Origin: a virus
IMG/VR virus record: IMGVR_UViG_3300031519_006967
Location: 1-64,000 of that record
Strand: one strand, 5' to 3'
DNA: 64,000 bases
Below are positions 4,639 through 47,880 of the stretch, piece by piece. The notes under the pieces are model-generated. The model saw nothing but the letters and a program-made list of their open reading frames with translations, was not told where the DNA came from and made no database searches. Every line of letters begins with the position of its first letter. The stretch's first letter is position 1. The translations under genes were made by a program, and so were the position numbers.

Positions 4639-5442
4639 ATGCCTAAAAAGACGACCACCCAAGTCGGCGGTAAGTACGCTTACCGAAAACCAAATGTTAA
4701 GTTCGATTTCTCTATTGCGGAGTTACCTTGGACGAAGAAACAACAGACGCTTATTAAGTTACTCCAAAGTAGGAATACTAAATGTGCCTTAATTAAGGGA
4801 TGTGCAGGAACATCTAAGACCATTGTGGCTATCTATGCTGGTCTACAACTACTGAAACAGAAGAAAATAAGTGATATCACATATGTTCGATCAGCGGTAG
4901 AAAGTAGCTCAGTGAAACTTGGTTTTTTACCAGGTGATATTACAGATAAATTCGCAGTATATGCTGCGCCACTACAAGATAAATTAGATGAATTATTGAC
5001 CCCCAATATTATTAAATCTTTGGTAGACGCTGATCACGTTCAAGCAATGCCCGTAAACTATATGCGAGGATTAAACTTCTCGGGTAGATTAGTAATATTG
5101 GATGAATCACAGAATTTTACTGAAGATGAATTAATTACTACCATAACTAGAATGGGGGAACACTCTCGTTTATGGATTTTAGGCGATCCTAATCAGAGCG
5201 ATCTTAAGGGTAGATGTAGAACGGATTTTGTTAATTTTTGTTATAAACTACGGGACGACGAATGTGTAGATAATGGAATCGAATCTTTTGAATTCGGAGT
5301 GGACGATATAATTCGTTCTGAATTCTGTAAGTTCGTAGTTAAGAAGTTGGGTATATATGAACACGCGGAGGATTTTGGTAAGCTGGAAATCCCTGAACGC
5401 GAACCACTATTACCCCCTAGTGTTTGGAGTCCTTCCGAATAA
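4639..5442 (+). CDS. phoH: PhoH-family ATPase
   Basis: GCAGTSKT, LGFLPGD, YMRG, LDESQN, TRMG, GDPNQSD. Confidence 0.92.
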   Translation: MPKKTTTQVGGKYAYRKPNVKFDFSIAELPWTKKQQTLIKLLQSRNTKCALIKGCAGTSKTIVAIYAGLQLLKQKKISDITYVRSAVESSSVKLGFLPGDITDKFAVYAAPLQDKLDELLTPNIIKSLVDADHVQAMPVNYMRGLNFSGRLVILDESQNFTEDELITTITRMGEHSRLWILGDPNQSDLKGRCRTDFVNFCYKLRDDECVDNGIESFEFGVDDIIRSEFCKFVVKKLGIYEHAEDFGKLEIPEREPLLPPSVWSPSE

Positions 5443-5445
5443 CAG

Positions 5446-5477
5446 AAGGGGGACATTTAAATGTCCCCCTTTTTTTT
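5446..5477. terminator. Intrinsic terminator between convergent genes
   Basis: Perfect palindrome AAGGGGGACATTTAAATGTCCCCCTT followed by a T-run. Confidence 0.85.
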
Positions 5478-5482
5478 GTATA

Positions 5483-5671
5483 TTAATCTGTACTTGGTGA
5501 TTCTTGAGACTGTAGATGCTCAATTAACATCTTCGCTTCATCGGCAGTTATCTGAACTTTCCCATTGTAATCATCGGTAATGGTGTATCCGTCCTTAGTA
5601 TTGGTTACTACTGGGCAGCAACCAGTTCCCCTGCGACATAAAACCACTGTATCTTTATCAACTCTTCTCAT
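5483..5671 (-). CDS. Hypothetical protein (C-x5-CCP motif)
   Basis: 62 aa ORF; ATAAATA 5 nt before ATG. Confidence 0.6.
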   Translation of the reverse strand: MRRVDKDTVVLCRRGTGCCPVVTNTKDGYTITDDYNGKVQITADEAKMLIEHLQSQESPSTD

Positions 5672-5679
5672 ATTATTAT

Positions 5680-5931
5680 TTATTCCAACATAGTAAAATA
5701 ATCAATATGTTTTGGTTCCAAAACGAAATCTTCCTTAAGTTCTTGCATGTTATAACTAATGCAATATGGGCAAGCATTAAGTGTGTGATAAATCAAACAC
5801 TCACACCCGTTACATAATCGAAATTGATCTATTCGGGGTGTTACATATGCTTCTCTCTCCTCCATGGTAGCCGTATCTAGGTTCATGGAATTTGAGTTAA
5901 GTAACGAATTTATTAATTTTGATATGTCCAT
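5680..5931 (-). CDS. Hypothetical zinc-ribbon protein
   Basis: CNGC and CPYC pairs. Confidence 0.55.
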   Translation of the reverse strand: MDISKLINSLLNSNSMNLDTATMEEREAYVTPRIDQFRLCNGCECLIYHTLNACPYCISYNMQELKEDFVLEPKHIDYFTMLE

Positions 5932-6629
5932 TATTCTACGCTCAGTTGGCTTAGGAGTGCTTGCTCCAGTGCTTCATTTTCAGCGGCATGTTCAATAGTC
6001 TTCAGTAATGATTCGTCAGTGGATTTAAAGTCACCACCATCTTGAATATATAATCCAGCCATCGCTGTTTTCTCTCCGTTGTCCTCGTCTCCAAAGATTT
6101 CTATAAACGCGGGTGAGTTCTCAAGTGGGAATATTAATCCCTCCCTGTTTTTATAGGATTGCTGTGCTTCTAAAAATAAAGTATTAATACTTTTTCTATA
6201 ATTTAAATCTAATTCTCTATCATCTCTCTCTTCTAAGTTTACGGGTGATAATTTAGATAGCGGTAGGAAGAAAATAACATCATACATTTTTAGAACTTCT
6301 CGGGTAATATGAAACGACTCTCCGATAAATTCATCATCATCGATTTTTCCCGTCTCTGCTAGATATAGAGTATACATCAGATTATCTAGGATACACCTAT
6401 CGTGAATGCATTGCTCCTCGTCTGAGTTCTCCATGGCTTGATCTGAAAGTGCATCTCTAATAATACGCTGACTCTCTACCGTTCCGTCCATGTTAAGGGA
6501 CAGTCCTTTAGACTCTATAAAATCTCTATAAGTGTTTTTCGGTTGGGTATACGTTGGCCACTGTTTAAGGAAAGATTTTATGAATGATGTTTTGCCATTA
6601 CAGGCGGTTGAACTAATTGCGATTCTCAT
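5931..6629 (-). CDS. P-loop nucleotide kinase (AAA_28/dNK-like)
   Basis: MRIAISSTACNGKTS, HDRCILD, YDVIFFLP; start reassigned. Confidence 0.7.
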   Translation of the reverse strand: MRIAISSTACNGKTSFIKSFLKQWPTYTQPKNTYRDFIESKGLSLNMDGTVESQRIIRDALSDQAMENSDEEQCIHDRCILDNLMYTLYLAETGKIDDDEFIGESFHITREVLKMYDVIFFLPLSKLSPVNLEERDDRELDLNYRKSINTLFLEAQQSYKNREGLIFPLENSPAFIEIFGDEDNGEKTAMAGLYIQDGGDFKSTDESLLKTIEHAAENEALEQALLSQLSVE

Positions 6630-42877: not shown

Positions 42878-42907
42878 AAGCCGCCCTTGAAATGGGGCGG
42901 CTTTTTT
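42878..42907 (+). terminator. Intrinsic terminator overlapping the uvsX promoter
   Basis: AAGCCGCCC-TTGAAATG-GGGCGGCTT followed by a T-run. Confidence 0.85.
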
Positions 42908-42920
42908 GTTATATTATATT

Positions 42921-44006
42921 ATGAGTAAACTATTAGAACGACTAAAGAAAAATTCTACGCTTGAATGCGAGATAATGAGCGATAGCAGATTTTACGGAAA
43001 CGATGTGTTTTATGATACTGGATACCCCCATTTAAATTTAGCATTGAGCGGAAGGCTTAACGGGGGTCTTAGTACTGGGGTGACCATGATTGCTGCTCCC
43101 TCCAAGCACTTCAAATCAAACTATTTATGTATTTGCATGAAGGCATTCCAAAGGGAAAAGCCAGATGGTGTTATTCTGTTCTATGATACTGAGGGCGGCA
43201 CTAAGCCTAGTTATCTGGAAACATTTGGGGTAGATGCTAGTAGACTACTACACATCCCTGTCATGAACTTAGAGGAGCTAAAATTTGATTTAGCTAAACA
43301 GTTGAACGATATGGATGCCGCCGACGATATTTTTGTTGCAGTAGATTCTTTAGGTAACATTGCATCTAAGAAAGAGGTGGTAGATGCTCAAACCGGAAAT
43401 GAGGCAGCAGATATGACTAGAGCTAAACAAATGAAGTCTTTAGGTAGAATTATAACTCCATATATTAATAAATTCAAAATATCGTTTGTTGGGATTGGTC
43501 ATACGTATCAGACTCAAGATAGATTTCCCACTACTGTTATGAGTGGTGGAACGGGTGTTATGTATATTAGTGACACTGTTTTATTAGTTGGTAAATCTCA
43601 GGAGAAGACCGGAAAGGTGTTGGATGGTTTTGATTTTAAATTAAATATTGATAAATCAAGATTTATCAAAGAAAAACTAACTATCCCGTTTCCTGTAATG
43701 TATAGTGGCGGACCTGACAAGTATGGAGCATTGTTTGATCTTTGTATGGCACATACTGATATTATTGAACAAAAGGGTGCTTGGTATGTTTACCCAGAAT
43801 CTGATAAAAATAAGAGAAAATCGGAAATTGTGCAGGACACAAAATGGATGGATTCTTTGTTGGAAAATGATGAATTTGTGGATGCAGTTGAGGGTTATTA
43901 TCGTCTCCCAGACCCCATTGACACGTCTCAGCCTTATGTTGCCCATGAGGAAGACCCTGATGAGGTAGATTTTGAGGCTATGGTTGCGGAAAATTCAGGG
44001 GAATAA
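42921..44006 (+). CDS. uvsX: UvsX/RecA-like recombinase
   Basis: LNLALSG, APSKHFKS, YDTE, VDSLGNIASKKE, ADMTRAK, SGGTG. Confidence 0.92.
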   Translation: MSKLLERLKKNSTLECEIMSDSRFYGNDVFYDTGYPHLNLALSGRLNGGLSTGVTMIAAPSKHFKSNYLCICMKAFQREKPDGVILFYDTEGGTKPSYLETFGVDASRLLHIPVMNLEELKFDLAKQLNDMDAADDIFVAVDSLGNIASKKEVVDAQTGNEAADMTRAKQMKSLGRIITPYINKFKISFVGIGHTYQTQDRFPTTVMSGGTGVMYISDTVLLVGKSQEKTGKVLDGFDFKLNIDKSRFIKEKLTIPFPVMYSGGPDKYGALFDLCMAHTDIIEQKGAWYVYPESDKNKRKSEIVQDTKWMDSLLENDEFVDAVEGYYRLPDPIDTSQPYVAHEEDPDEVDFEAMVAENSGE

Positions 44007-44022
44007 AACATTCAATTTATTC

Positions 44023-44051
44023 TTGACAATACTAAAGTCATGGGGTAATAT
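44023..44051 (+). promoter_or_regulatory. Sigma70-type promoter
   Basis: TTGACA-N17-TAATAT. Confidence 0.7.
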
Positions 44052-44061
44052 AAGTCTCACA

Positions 44062-44190
44062 GTTCAGAGATTACATTCAGCAACTAAAAATTGTAACGTA
44101 AACACAAAAAACACGTAATCTGAGTCTGAACACCATAATAGATTGAATACAGCAAACGTATTTTAAAATAAACAAATAAACAAATCAATC
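44062..44190 (+). ncRNA. Putative structured leader RNA with two CAGCAA stem-loops
   Basis: AGATTAC/GTAATCT and GATTGA/TCAATC stems, each followed by ATWCAGCAA and an A-rich loop; outer GTTCAGA/TCTGAAC stem. Confidence 0.5.
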
Positions 44191-44198
44191 AGAAAATT

Positions 44199-45650
44199 AT
44201 GAACACCCATAACGGAGCAAACGCAAATTATAGCACAGGACACCCACTAGTGGAGTTCTTCGGAAAAGCAGGATCACTCTTTGATAAAAAGAAGGCTAAC
44301 CAATCATATTACGGGAATGAGGCAACAGCCTTAGACTTGTTTTTAAACGCATGGGAAGTAGACAAGGAGAAGGCATTTAAACTCCTTCTTTGGTGTCGTG
44401 ACGTTCGTGGTGGTGCCGGAAATCGAAGTGGATCACGATCTATTCTAACTTGGCTCGCAGGAGTTGACGCGGATTGGATCAATCTTAATATTTCTAAAAT
44501 CCCTGAACTTGGTCGTTGGGATGACCTTATCGCATTGGTGGGAACTCCATGTGAGTCGTCTGCCCTTGAATTATGGGCATCTGCCATTAATAATAAAGAT
44601 GGTCTTGCATGTAAGTGGTCTCCTAGAGAGAATAAGGCAGGACGCACCGTAGCTAAGAAACTTCGTAAGCTTTTGGGGTTTACCCCAAAGGAATATCGTA
44701 AGTGGTTGACTGCTAATACCCAAGTTGTTGAGACTGCAATGTGCAACAAAAACTGGAACGAAATCAAGTTTGGGGCAGTTCCATCCGTGGCTATGTCACG
44801 GTATGGTAAGTCTTTCCGAAAGCATGATGAAACTCGGTTCACGCAGTATTTGGAAGATGTTAAGAACCCAGAATCTAAAGAGAAAATCAACGCGGGAGCA
44901 TTGTTTCCTCATGACATTATGAAGGCACTACCATCTACAGGTCGCGGTTGGTCCGACATTAAGTATGGTAAGTCTGACGTAGCTGACGCTCAATTTGAGG
45001 CTATGCCAGATTTTTTCGACACTGATATGCGGGTTATGCCTATTATCGATACTTCTGGTTCGATGTGTGTTAACGTTGCGGGGGATACCTCAGCATCCGA
45101 TGTTGCTATTTCACTAGCAATGTATGCATCAGATCGCCTTGGTGAGGACAACCCATTCTACAGAAAGTTTATTCCATTCTCCACTAAGGCTCAGTTCTTT
45201 GATTGGAAGAATGCTGATGGATTTTCTGACGGCGTGGGGCAATTCGCCGAATCTACTGGTTACGGTTGGATTGGATCAACTAACGTTGCTTCTGCTTTTC
45301 GCCTATTGCTAGATACTGGAAGCTTCCTAAATGTTACTTCTGAGCAGATGCCTAATACGCTTCTAATTATCTCTGACATGCAGTTTAATTCTGGAACTAG
45401 TGGAGATGGAACGGAGGTTAGAAATCTTATTAAAGAGTGGACAGATCGCGGCTTTGACGAGCCAAATGTAGTATATTGGAACACTTCAGGTTATGCTGGT
45501 GCGCCTGACTCCGCGTATAGTGATAAGACGGGCATGGTCTCAGGATTCAGCCCATCTATTTTGAACGCAGTATTTAATGGAACTGATTTCACCCCACTGG
45601 GGATTATGGAACAGGCTATCGAGAAGTATGAGGTAGTTATTCCTGATTAA
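44199..45650 (+). CDS. DUF2828 / TROVE(Ro60)-like protein with C-terminal vWA
   Basis: RDVRGGAGNR, GRWDDL, KWSPRE, VPSVAM, DTSGSM, ISDMQF, VYWN, VSGFSP. Confidence 0.8.
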   Translation: MNTHNGANANYSTGHPLVEFFGKAGSLFDKKKANQSYYGNEATALDLFLNAWEVDKEKAFKLLLWCRDVRGGAGNRSGSRSILTWLAGVDADWINLNISKIPELGRWDDLIALVGTPCESSALELWASAINNKDGLACKWSPRENKAGRTVAKKLRKLLGFTPKEYRKWLTANTQVVETAMCNKNWNEIKFGAVPSVAMSRYGKSFRKHDETRFTQYLEDVKNPESKEKINAGALFPHDIMKALPSTGRGWSDIKYGKSDVADAQFEAMPDFFDTDMRVMPIIDTSGSMCVNVAGDTSASDVAISLAMYASDRLGEDNPFYRKFIPFSTKAQFFDWKNADGFSDGVGQFAESTGYGWIGSTNVASAFRLLLDTGSFLNVTSEQMPNTLLIISDMQFNSGTSGDGTEVRNLIKEWTDRGFDEPNVVYWNTSGYAGAPDSAYSDKTGMVSGFSPSILNAVFNGTDFTPLGIMEQAIEKYEVVIPD

Positions 45651-45673
45651 TTTATCGTTGTATTTTTCATAAT

Positions 45674-45772
45674 AATCAACGCTAAAATCCAGCCATGACT
45701 ACCGCGCTTAAGAACTCCGATCTCGCCACTGACTCCGACGCGGTAGGCGTTGGCTGCGATGCCTTGTTCGGC
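45674..45772 (-). other. attC-like integron recombination site
   Basis: Minus strand: R'' GCCGAAC, 5 nt, L'' ATCGCAGC, CTACCGCG/CGCGGTAG stem, L' GCTGGAT, 6 nt, R' GTT; extra G in L''. Confidence 0.75.
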
Positions 45773-46071
45773 TTCTTATCTGGGACTACTAGCGAGCAGC
45801 GATGTGGGATAATGCCGCAACCCTCTCCTGTGTGCCTCGCTATCACGCCACCGCAAGAAAGAGTGATCGAGGCTCTAGCAATACTGGAACAACTTAAAGA
45901 ATGCACGTCTCCGATCTCATCCGTGCAACTAATGAATCAGATTACGGAGTGCCTTCGTCCTGTTGAATCTGAACTAGAGGAAGTGCGGCTCCAATGCTCT
46001 AAACTCCGCCAATGGGGTGAAGCGTGGAAAAAACGAACCAAGCTCGAAATAGAATTAAATTCTCTGCCGAA
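45680..46071 (-). mobile_element. Integron-type gene cassette
   Basis: Begins G/TTCGGC (46072-46066), the exact complement of R''; ends in attC; visibly GC-richer than flanks. Confidence 0.7.
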
Positions 46072-46078
46072 CAGATAA
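45695..46078 (+). CDS. Hypothetical cassette-borne protein (LEEVR..CSKLRQWG motif)
   Basis: 127 aa ORF; first ~26 codons are the attC bottom strand. Confidence 0.55.
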   Translation: MTTALKNSDLATDSDAVGVGCDALFGFLSGTTSEQRCGIMPQPSPVCLAITPPQERVIEALAILEQLKECTSPISSVQLMNQITECLRPVESELEEVRLQCSKLRQWGEAWKKRTKLEIELNSLPNR

Positions 46079-46082
46079 AAGA

Positions 46083-46118
46083 AAAACCCGCCCCTCTTAA
46101 TTGAGTTGCGGGTTTTTT
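46083..46118 (+). terminator. Intrinsic terminator
   Basis: AAAAACCCGC...GCGGGTTTTTT. Confidence 0.8.
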
Positions 46119-46134
46119 GCGTATAAGTATTACC

Positions 46135-46498
46135 ATGATAGTTAAATTTAAATTAGCAGGATTTTTCGTGGATAAACCAAAATACGCGACTATAGAAATA
46201 GACGCTGAGGCTGATGCTGTTCAGTTGGCGGACGGTAATATATTAAAAGTTAAACAGTTGGATGGACCTGCCCTAGACCAATATGTATTCGAAAAATATG
46301 TAGCCAACACTGGAATGGATGGTAGAGTGTTGGAAATGGTGATAAGTAGCTAGTGAGGAATATGAGGAATATGATTTCGAATTTGATAGAGACGATTGGG
46401 TTGAATTATCAGGCTACATCAATATAAGCCTACATGATGCCTATTATCATGCGGAATATGATAGAGACGCAGCAGAAGAACGATTTAACAATTCCTAG
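46135..46498 (+). CDS. Hypothetical protein, probably frameshifted at ~46351
   Basis: ATAAGTA-N5-ATG; TAG at 46351, then +1 frame open to 46498. Confidence 0.45.
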
Positions 46499-46533
46499 TT
46501 GAACTGATGGGTTGGCTGTGATACATTTATTTA

Positions 46534-47880
46534 ATGTCACAACTTAATCTAGACCTATATGAGAAAGTAATTGTATACAACTGCCTAAAAACAGGTAATG
46601 AGGAATACCTATCCTCAGTTGTAGAACATATAGACCCTGAACTATTCAACAATAGAGATGCTGCTTGCGTGGTGGAAGTCATACGAGATTTCTATCTGGA
46701 AAACGACACAATCCCAAATAGAACGGAAATCCGCGCTAGGATCAACAACAAGACACTATTAGAGTCGTTTAAACGCCTTTTAACGGACTTTAAAGACTTA
46801 GATAAGGATTATACCATATCGGAACTAGTTAAGAACACTGAGAACTTTATCAAGCAACGCTCCCTGCTTAAAAATATTGAGAGGTCGTTGGAAGAACACT
46901 CTTCAGAGAAAAGAATTGATGAGGAGCGAGTTCTTAAAGAGTTTGATAAAATTCAAAGCTTATCTCTAATAGATAATTTAGGTTTAGATTTACTTGCAGA
47001 TTCCCAACAATTTGTGGATAGACTTTTACAGGCGGATGAGTATATATCAACTGGTTATATTTGGTTAGATCGAGAATTGGGAGGTGGATTACATAAAGAA
47101 GGTAAAGCGATCTACGGCATTGCGGGTGAAACCAATGTTGGTAAATCAATTGTTTTAGGTAATATTGGTACTAATATTTTATTGCAAGGCTACAACGTAG
47201 TAGTTATATCATTGGAGATGTCTGAATTTAGATATGCTAAGCGATTAGCTTCTATGTTATCTGACATTAAGCAGGTGGATTTGGCGAATAAGACTGATGA
47301 ATATTTGGAGTTTGTTACCACGTTCCAAAGCAAAAATAATGGGCGACTAATAATTAAAGAATTCCCAACGAAACAGGTTAGTGCAAAACACGTTGCAGGT
47401 TATATCAAAAGGTTGAAGAGAAAGAAGAACTTTGAACCAGATGTTATTGTTTTAGATTACCATACACTTCTTAAGCCATCAATATCACAAGGTTCTAAAC
47501 ATGCTGATATGCAGTTTACCACACAAGAAAGTAGAGCATTGTCATATCTATTTGATGCTCCTGTGTTGTCTGCTGCTCAGCTTAATAGAGGTGAGGGGGC
47601 AGCTAGTGGGCCATCCCTAGATAGAATTGCAGGATCGTGGGATATGTTATCAGACATGGACTATCTTGTAAATATTTGGCAGTCTGATGAGGATCGGGAA
47701 GCTGAATTACTTCGCTGGGCAATTAAAAAGGCTAGAGATTCGGAGAGAAATAATGAACATTTTTGGCCTGTAGATTACTCAACGTTAAGACTATTAGATG
47801 ATGACGCGGGTGGTGAGGTTCAAGCAGTTGCCAACGCTAGTGTAATGACAGATATTGTTGGAGATTTATTTGGAGATTAA
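46534..47880 (+). CDS. gp41: gp41/DnaB-like replicative helicase
   Basis: GETNVGKS, SLEMSE, IKEFPT, VLDY, AQLNR. Confidence 0.9.
   Translation: MSQLNLDLYEKVIVYNCLKTGNEEYLSSVVEHIDPELFNNRDAACVVEVIRDFYLENDTIPNRTEIRARINNKTLLESFKRLLTDFKDLDKDYTISELVKNTENFIKQRSLLKNIERSLEEHSSEKRIDEERVLKEFDKIQSLSLIDNLGLDLLADSQQFVDRLLQADEYISTGYIWLDRELGGGLHKEGKAIYGIAGETNVGKSIVLGNIGTNILLQGYNVVVISLEMSEFRYAKRLASMLSDIKQVDLANKTDEYLEFVTTFQSKNNGRLIIKEFPTKQVSAKHVAGYIKRLKRKKNFEPDVIVLDYHTLLKPSISQGSKHADMQFTTQESRALSYLFDAPVLSAAQLNRGEGAASGPSLDRIAGSWDMLSDMDYLVNIWQSDEDREAELLRWAIKKARDSERNNEHFWPVDYSTLRLLDDDAGGEVQAVANASVMTDIVGDLFGD

Follow-up and report, generated by a model that had tools for sequence, protein, structure and literature searches.

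Integron-type attC sites and CALINs have been described in virulent marine phages that lack an integrase of their own, and in an assay with IntI1, recombination occurred at five of six such sites, P12002L_attC1 being the one of the six whose junction was not verified (PMC9892861). Since that survey required at least two attCs within 3 kb, single cassettes such as the one considered here (45680-46071) were missed by design (PMC9892861). In bacteria, SALINs as well as the IntI-driven insertion of cassettes at 5'-GWT-3' sites of the genome have been reported, and attG sites lacking the CRGM motif serve as targets as well, though less often (Loot et al., bioRxiv 10.1101/2022.09.11.507474). With attC sites in virulent phages (PMC9892861) and GWT-site insertion (bioRxiv 10.1101/2022.09.11.507474) both published, an earlier reading of the present locus (the sequence-only reading) had overstated how far it goes beyond precedent.

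The locus lies in a window of 64 kb (the whole stretch of DNA that was analysed), i.e., the first part of a 100,827-bp IMG/VR virus record with a completeness estimate of 47%, whose source genome is a distant T4-like marine phage. The stretch 45680-46071 is in our view quite probably a single integrase-less integron-type cassette (SALIN) that was inserted at a secondary GTT site, in the interval separating the stop codon of a phage gene from the terminator of that same gene. The setting is as follows; here and below, a slash within a G/TT or longer sequence marks a junction.

42906-44006: UvsX/RecA-like gene
44023-44051, + strand: promoter-like site TTGACA-17-TAATAT, 5' of the DUF2828 gene (consensus match only)
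44199-45650, + strand: upstream phage gene with DUF2828 and DUF7788 domains (ORF list and domain search)
45680-46071, - strand: candidate cassette, 392 bp, delimited by the attC model match, the 7/7 complementarity of R'' and R' and the GC step
45695-46078, + strand: cargo gene on the attC bottom strand, encoding P0001 (127 aa), with its ATG between L' and the inner stem
46082-46117, + strand: phage terminator-like hairpin and T run, an inverted repeat with 15-nt arms that are 87% complementary, directly 3' of the insertion
46534-47880: gp41-type helicase

The top strand of the putative attC is the minus strand of the window and reads, in order, R'' GCCGAAC, the spacer AAGGC, L'' ATCGCAGC, a variable stem-loop, L' GCTGGAT, the spacer TTTAGC and R' G/TTGATT, with the last six bases of R' being phage DNA. 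Read on the + strand, the R' side consists of AAC (45678-45680), the spacer GCTAAA, ATCCAGC (45687-45693) and CTACCGCG (45699-45706), and the R'' side of CGCGGTAG (45739-45746), GCTGCGAT (45753-45760), the spacer GCCTT and GTTCGGC (45766-45772). The motifs, the stem, the spacers and the extra G of L'' were all found where the sequence-only reading had placed them. The parts are the following, together with the opposite end of the cassette.

45674-45772, - strand: attC site; the covariance model R1 described below matches at 45675-45772, and single-strand folds pair L' and L'' with one bulged base
45678-45680, - strand: R' core G/TT, which forms the right junction; the cassette ends with G (45680), and TT (45679-45678) belongs to the phage
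45687-45693, - strand: L' box GCTGGAT
45699-45746: inner stem CTACCGCG with CGCGGTAG, 8 bp closing a loop of 32 nt; this variable portion of the attC encodes ORF residues 2-18
45753-45760, - strand: L'' box ATCGCAGC, in which one base is extrahelical (top strand G, bottom strand C45757)
45766-45772, - strand: R'' box GCCGAAC; GTTCGGC on the + strand encodes part of the conserved LFG motif
46066-46072, - strand: left junction G/TTCGGC; G (46072) is phage DNA, and TTCGGC are the first six cassette bases; GCCGAAC on the + strand encodes LPN

The attC core-site consensus is RYYYAAC for R'' and G/TTRRRY for R'. With respect to this consensus, R'' GCCGAAC agrees at six of seven positions (G at the fourth position, where the consensus has Y), as befits a core site, and so does R' in its circular form GTTCGGC (6/7), the inserted form being GTTGATT. 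L'' and L' pair as ATC[G]CAGC with GCTGGAT, leaving one extra base, and this pairing together with the 5-nt spacer AAGGC and the 6-nt spacer TTTAGC is the arrangement that defines an attC. Likeness to genuine attCs extends to details: the R'' spacer AAGGC fits their AAnnC, the R' spacer TTTAGC followed by GTT fits their ...AGC-GTT, and ATCGCAGC with GCTGGAT resembles the blaIMP-1 pair GTTGCAGC with GCTGAAC, whose extra base stands at the same position. An extra G on the top strand is also present in the genuine attCs of blaIMP-1 (GTTGCAGC) and cmlA1 (GCTGCAGC). Folding, a check that had been proposed with the sequence-only reading, gave single strands in which L' and L'' pair with one bulged base, at a modest stability of 1.4 to 2.1 sd over shuffled sequence (z -1.4 to -2.1). 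Two other assignments of the hairpin were ruled out, namely, the + strand as the attC top strand (no R1 match on the + strand at that place) and a terminator of the upstream gene (no T run after the hairpin).

In a script scan, the + strand of the window contains four instances of the minimal layout AAC-6-L'(7)-loop-L''(8, one bulge)-5-GTT, and these chance occurrences mean that the layout alone is not significant. They favor an alternative explanation, in which an ordinary accessory gene (a "moron") was acquired via illegitimate or homologous recombination and the hairpin is either a coincidence of the coding sequence or an mRNA structure that masks the start and regulates translation. An RNA fold of the region that places the ATG inside a stem (-37 kcal/mol, z = -2.1) speaks for the same explanation. 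Because the bare architecture was no better than chance, an independent test was built, i.e., a covariance model (R1) made from 17 different genuine class 1 attC sites with their R and L pairings, the candidate being left out of training. The sites come from R100 and ten further plasmids with class 1 integrons and include those of aadA1, aadA2, aadA16, aac(6')-IIa, aac(6')-Ib, arr-3, blaIMP-1, blaVIM-1, catB2, cmlA1, dfrA1, dfrA12, and qacL. Both strands of the 64-kb window (128 kb of strand) were searched with filters off; the model is home-made, and its E-values are rough.

Only one match had an E of <1, a full-length one with 23.3 bits (E of ~7e-4) on the minus strand at 45675-45772; it upholds the earlier claim of an integron-type attC with canonical geometry. 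The next best place in the window reached 11.1 bits, another 78 kb of phage sequence (the remainder of the genome and five other phage loci) gave 13.5 bits at most, and on 184 kb of plasmid DNA no place other than an attC was found at an E of 0.01, the sole extra row being the reverse strand of a genuine attC. The score of the candidate is below the range of genuine class 1 attCs (26.6-69.5 bits); P12002L_attC1, the published predicted phage attC, scored 15.3 bits. It is thus the whole pattern, as measured by R1, and not the bare layout that sets 45675-45772 apart and lifts the site above chance. This result weighs against the accessory gene explanation, since a model made independently of the candidate puts the site 12 bits above the rest of the window and the spacer motifs fit as well.

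By default, IntegronFinder needs two attCs for a CALIN call, and single matches are the class most prone to false positives. R1 found no second attC in the genome. That no intI occurs in the window had been noted before, and this absence could be extended to the whole 100.8-kb record (estimated as 47% complete), in which searches with TIGR02249 and PF00589 found neither intI nor any other tyrosine recombinase. The locus has neither intI and attI nearby, as a complete integron would, nor the at least two attCs within 4 kb of a CALIN, and with no intI and no second attC the cassette fits only the single-site class (SALIN).

On its top strand, the cassette runs from TTCGGC... (46071 downwards) to ...TTTAGCG (45680), and the junctions read TTATCTG/TTCGGC and TTTAGCG/TTGATT, i.e., both ends are G/TT. 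R'' GCCGAAC is complementary at 7/7 positions to the G plus TTCGGC at 46072-46066, as the sequence-only reading had stated, and the inverted repeat extends to 8 nt (8/8) with one flanking base. The 7-mer GCCGAAC has only four copies on either strand of the 64 kb, two of which are R'' and the left junction. The 392-bp block is compositionally foreign. Its GC content of 51.0%, which is indeed above the 41% and 38% of its flanks, exceeds that of every other 392-bp stretch in the window (mean 37.2%, sd 3.6); both cassette ends coincide with the GC step, and GC3 is 0.51 in the cassette versus 0.32-0.39 in the neighboring genes. What argues against a gene acquired by ordinary recombination is that the R' of the model falls exactly on the GC step and that R'' pairs at 7/7 positions with the other end of the block. 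A T4-type mobile module flanked by repeats was ruled out, as the block has no flanking direct repeats. An additional 7-nt inverted repeat, TTATCTG and CAGATAA (45776-45782 and 46072-46078), links the cassette interior just past R'' with the phage DNA at the junction and may be due to chance.

From the two junctions, the target before insertion would have been TTATCTG/TTGATTA, an attG-type secondary site that conforms to 5'-GWT-3'. The hotspot motif CRGM is absent at +6 to +9, where the putative target reads TATT. The empty site is predicted to be ...AATCAA/CAGATAA..., i.e., ...ATAATCAA/CAGATAAAAG..., and the junction of the 392-bp circle would be ...CTGCCGAA/CGCTAAAATCC.... The search for the empty site in related phages, which had been suggested as a check, was fruitless: scans with a 33-mer of the right flank revealed neither an empty nor an alternative site, and the read contigs of four runs show the insert form only.

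The relation of the cargo gene to the attC is unusual. As the sequence-only reading had held, and as the ORF list and the strand of the R1 match show, the ORF opposes the canonical polarity, with a start codon that lies within the attC and a stop codon contributed by phage DNA. In a canonical cassette, a promoterless ORF on the top strand ends before or inside the attC; here the ORF runs along the bottom strand, the attC supplies the codons for residues 1-26, and phage DNA provides the final codon AGA (Arg127) as well as the stop TAA (46076-46078), the cassette itself containing no stop for the gene. In the circular form, the frame would close as ...NSLPNAKIQP and a stop, the TGA overlapping the gene's own ATG. 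Judging from this layout, attC sites may double as translation-start modules, as had been proposed. Since the cassette lies between the promoter-like site with its gene (44023-45650) and the terminator-like hairpin (46082-46117), expression of the cargo by read-through appears plausible from the arrangement of these elements, and a transcript entering the cassette would likely start from the promoter-like site at 44023-44051.

P0001 has no Pfam or PHROG family. In its AlphaFold model (mean pLDDT of 84), the first 30 residues, which are the attC-encoded part, are disordered, and a three-helix bundle spans residues 47-122, so that the cargo protein is, as modeled, a small three-helix bundle with an attC-encoded disordered leader. 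Structure searches gave no usable ESM Atlas or Foldseek match and nothing specific with respect to the fold. Scans of viral contigs and of metagenome contigs found no relatives of the cargo gene; relatives of P0001 in metagenomes have 55-71% identity, and a profile search added 55 proteins that are more distantly related and ~90-120 aa long, the majority starting at ~residue 32 of P0001.

These relatives may bear on the boundaries. P0002 and P0059, which fall into one 90% cluster, differ at two residues up to ...NSLPN and have entirely different tails thereafter, i.e., I followed by a stop versus a tail of 18 residues. All six close relatives (6/6) diverge, at the protein level, directly after the junction Asn, whose AAC codon is the predicted crossover. 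The C-terminus of P0004 reads NAKSPSAP and a stop (...NSLPNAKSPSAP and a stop), as expected if the gene runs into a similar attC. At the other end, similarity to a homologue on a phage-like contig of a Phycisphaerales MAG (L002) and to a fused form (P0005) begins at the R'' codons, the N-termini being unrelated; both look, from their sequences, like copies after attC loss. An integrase search in this MAG gave only Xer-like matches, all of which are under the IntI cut-off.

The same family also supplies arguments for an ordinary acquired gene. Both R boxes lie within coding sequence for motifs conserved in the family (LFG and LPN), and in L002, which lacks an attC 5' of the gene, the same codons also read GTTCGGC. 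A distant member in the Vibrio phage vB_CoeS_P1 is encoded within a replication module by an ordinary gene that has a Shine-Dalgarno site and no attC; the family thus also exists outside cassettes. Moreover, no integrase, empty site or donor array was found. On the other hand, near-identical relatives break, at the protein level, exactly at the predicted crossover, and the probability that a single acquired gene combines all of these features by chance is roughly estimated at <1e-6. Taken together, we regard acquisition as an ordinary accessory gene as unlikely and prefer the insertion of an integron-type cassette.

Two side observations concern the genes just mentioned. The L002 homologue (79-450) is bracketed by a direct repeat, CTCCTAACACC[A/G]ATG, at 67-81 and 444-458 (~30 nt with flanks; two matches versus 0.03 expected), which contains the start codon of the next gene, encoding a DNA methylase, so that the inserted gene uses a duplicate of its neighbor's start region. 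In vB_CoeS_P1 (PV206818.1, L030), the distant relative of the cargo is the CDS annotated as "tRNA-His guanylyltransferase" (6001-6345), just upstream of which a long open frame is unannotated (about 5266-5990); the product name may be misplaced.

With respect to the phage itself, no close relative was found in phage or viral-contig collections, and a megablast of the region against 50,697 phage records gave no match. A scan with the DUF2828 neighbor likewise had no matches, and relatives found via the helicase have 35-41% identity and no neighborhood in common. The phage sequence occurs in marine, seawater, and brine metagenomes; among the matches listed, 20 runs from 16 studies contain at least part of it. 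The insert-bearing form was identical in all four runs examined (four studies; marine, seawater, and brine), in which contigs bridge both junctions and no variant was seen. Over the region 44600-47200, the contigs of the four studies have zero differing letters relative to the window wherever it is covered. Marine and brine samples dated between 2017 and 2024 contain a very uniform phage population. In run X12, one contig starts exactly at 46070 (the junction AAC) and spans 46070-46394 at a depth of 9.4, the neighboring contigs having depths of 4.8 and 5.6; a second genome with a different left side may share this 325-bp stretch, a signal too weak to serve as evidence.

A loose Shine-Dalgarno match is present upstream of only 7 of the 44 long + strand genes in the window, which is a pointer to a host without Shine-Dalgarno-led initiation, such as a member of the Bacteroidota. 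Neither a host nor a donor array was found. Such a Bacteroidota-type host would also suit a second alternative, according to which the cassette belongs to a separate, phage-borne integron-like system with a small Xer-type recombinase instead of IntI, one unit of which was stranded without its enzyme, and the known contexts of the protein family, which are phage or phage-like, agree with it. Nevertheless, the site matches a model trained on IntI1-type attCs only and has AAC and GTT cores, 5- and 6-nt spacers and a bulged base; the record holds no recombinase of any kind, and no attC with the same L boxes was found in 2.9 million viral contigs. We consider such a system highly improbable, and an integron-type cassette at a secondary GTT site remains our preferred reading.

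For this integron-type cassette, the following course of events is proposed. An integron integrase, which could come from the host or from another phage, would act on the folded bottom strand of the circular cassette and recombine it with a GTT of the phage DNA during replication, the target being TTATCTG/TTGATTA; we infer that it was such an integrase that made the insertion. The orientation that was kept would be the one in which the gene is read through from the upstream phage promoter and ends at the phage terminator. Given its backward build, the cassette probably stems from a pool that is adapted to phage operons and not to the bacterial Pc promoter. A further step is somewhat more doubtful than not: phages may have their own pool of backward cassettes, in which the attC bottom strand is the mRNA strand and, in rows of like cassettes, the hairpin would carry the start codon together with the stop of the previous gene (ATGA overlap), so that expression would be immediate upon insertion into an operon. 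The T4-like phage would then be a record of an integrase pasting one such cassette into virulent phage DNA at a bare GTT during infection.

If the insertion of an integron-type cassette is confirmed, the locus represents a clean natural example of integron-type site-specific recombination at a secondary site on a virulent-type phage genome, and it joins two recently published and so far unconnected ideas, attC sites in phages and attG insertion. It would suggest that phages take single genes from the cassette pool without any integron machinery, and that cassette polarity may be adapted to the recipient, a backward cassette being silent in a bacterial integron and expressed from a phage operon. 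The host of this widespread marine and brine phage, or a co-infecting element, would have to supply the integron integrase.

In comparison with the cassettes of class 1 integrons (aadA1, blaIMP-1, cmlA1, and others), the locus shares the order R'', 5 nt, L'' (8 nt with one extra base), variable stem, L' (7 nt), 6 nt and R', the complementarity of R'' to the cassette start and a size of a few hundred bases. It is unlike them in that its gene runs antisense from a start within the attC and lacks an internal stop, that attI, the Pc promoter and intI are all missing, and that the attC score is below their 26.6-69.5 bits. The previously described virulent marine phages likewise have integron-type attCs and no integrase of their own (PMC9892861); here, one complete cassette with both G/TT junctions readable is found, and the phage is T4-like. 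Gene polarity relative to the attC was not discussed in that work (PMC9892861), and a literature search found no paper on backward cassettes in phages. Further counterparts are the SALINs of Loot et al. (bioRxiv 10.1101/2022.09.11.507474), which also consist of a single attC with one CDS at a 5'-GWT-3' site (G/TT in the present case), have no nearby integrase and depend for expression on a nearby resident promoter. They reside in bacterial chromosomes, whereas the present cassette is found in a virulent-type phage, lacks the CRGM motif at its target and carries its cargo on the bottom strand.
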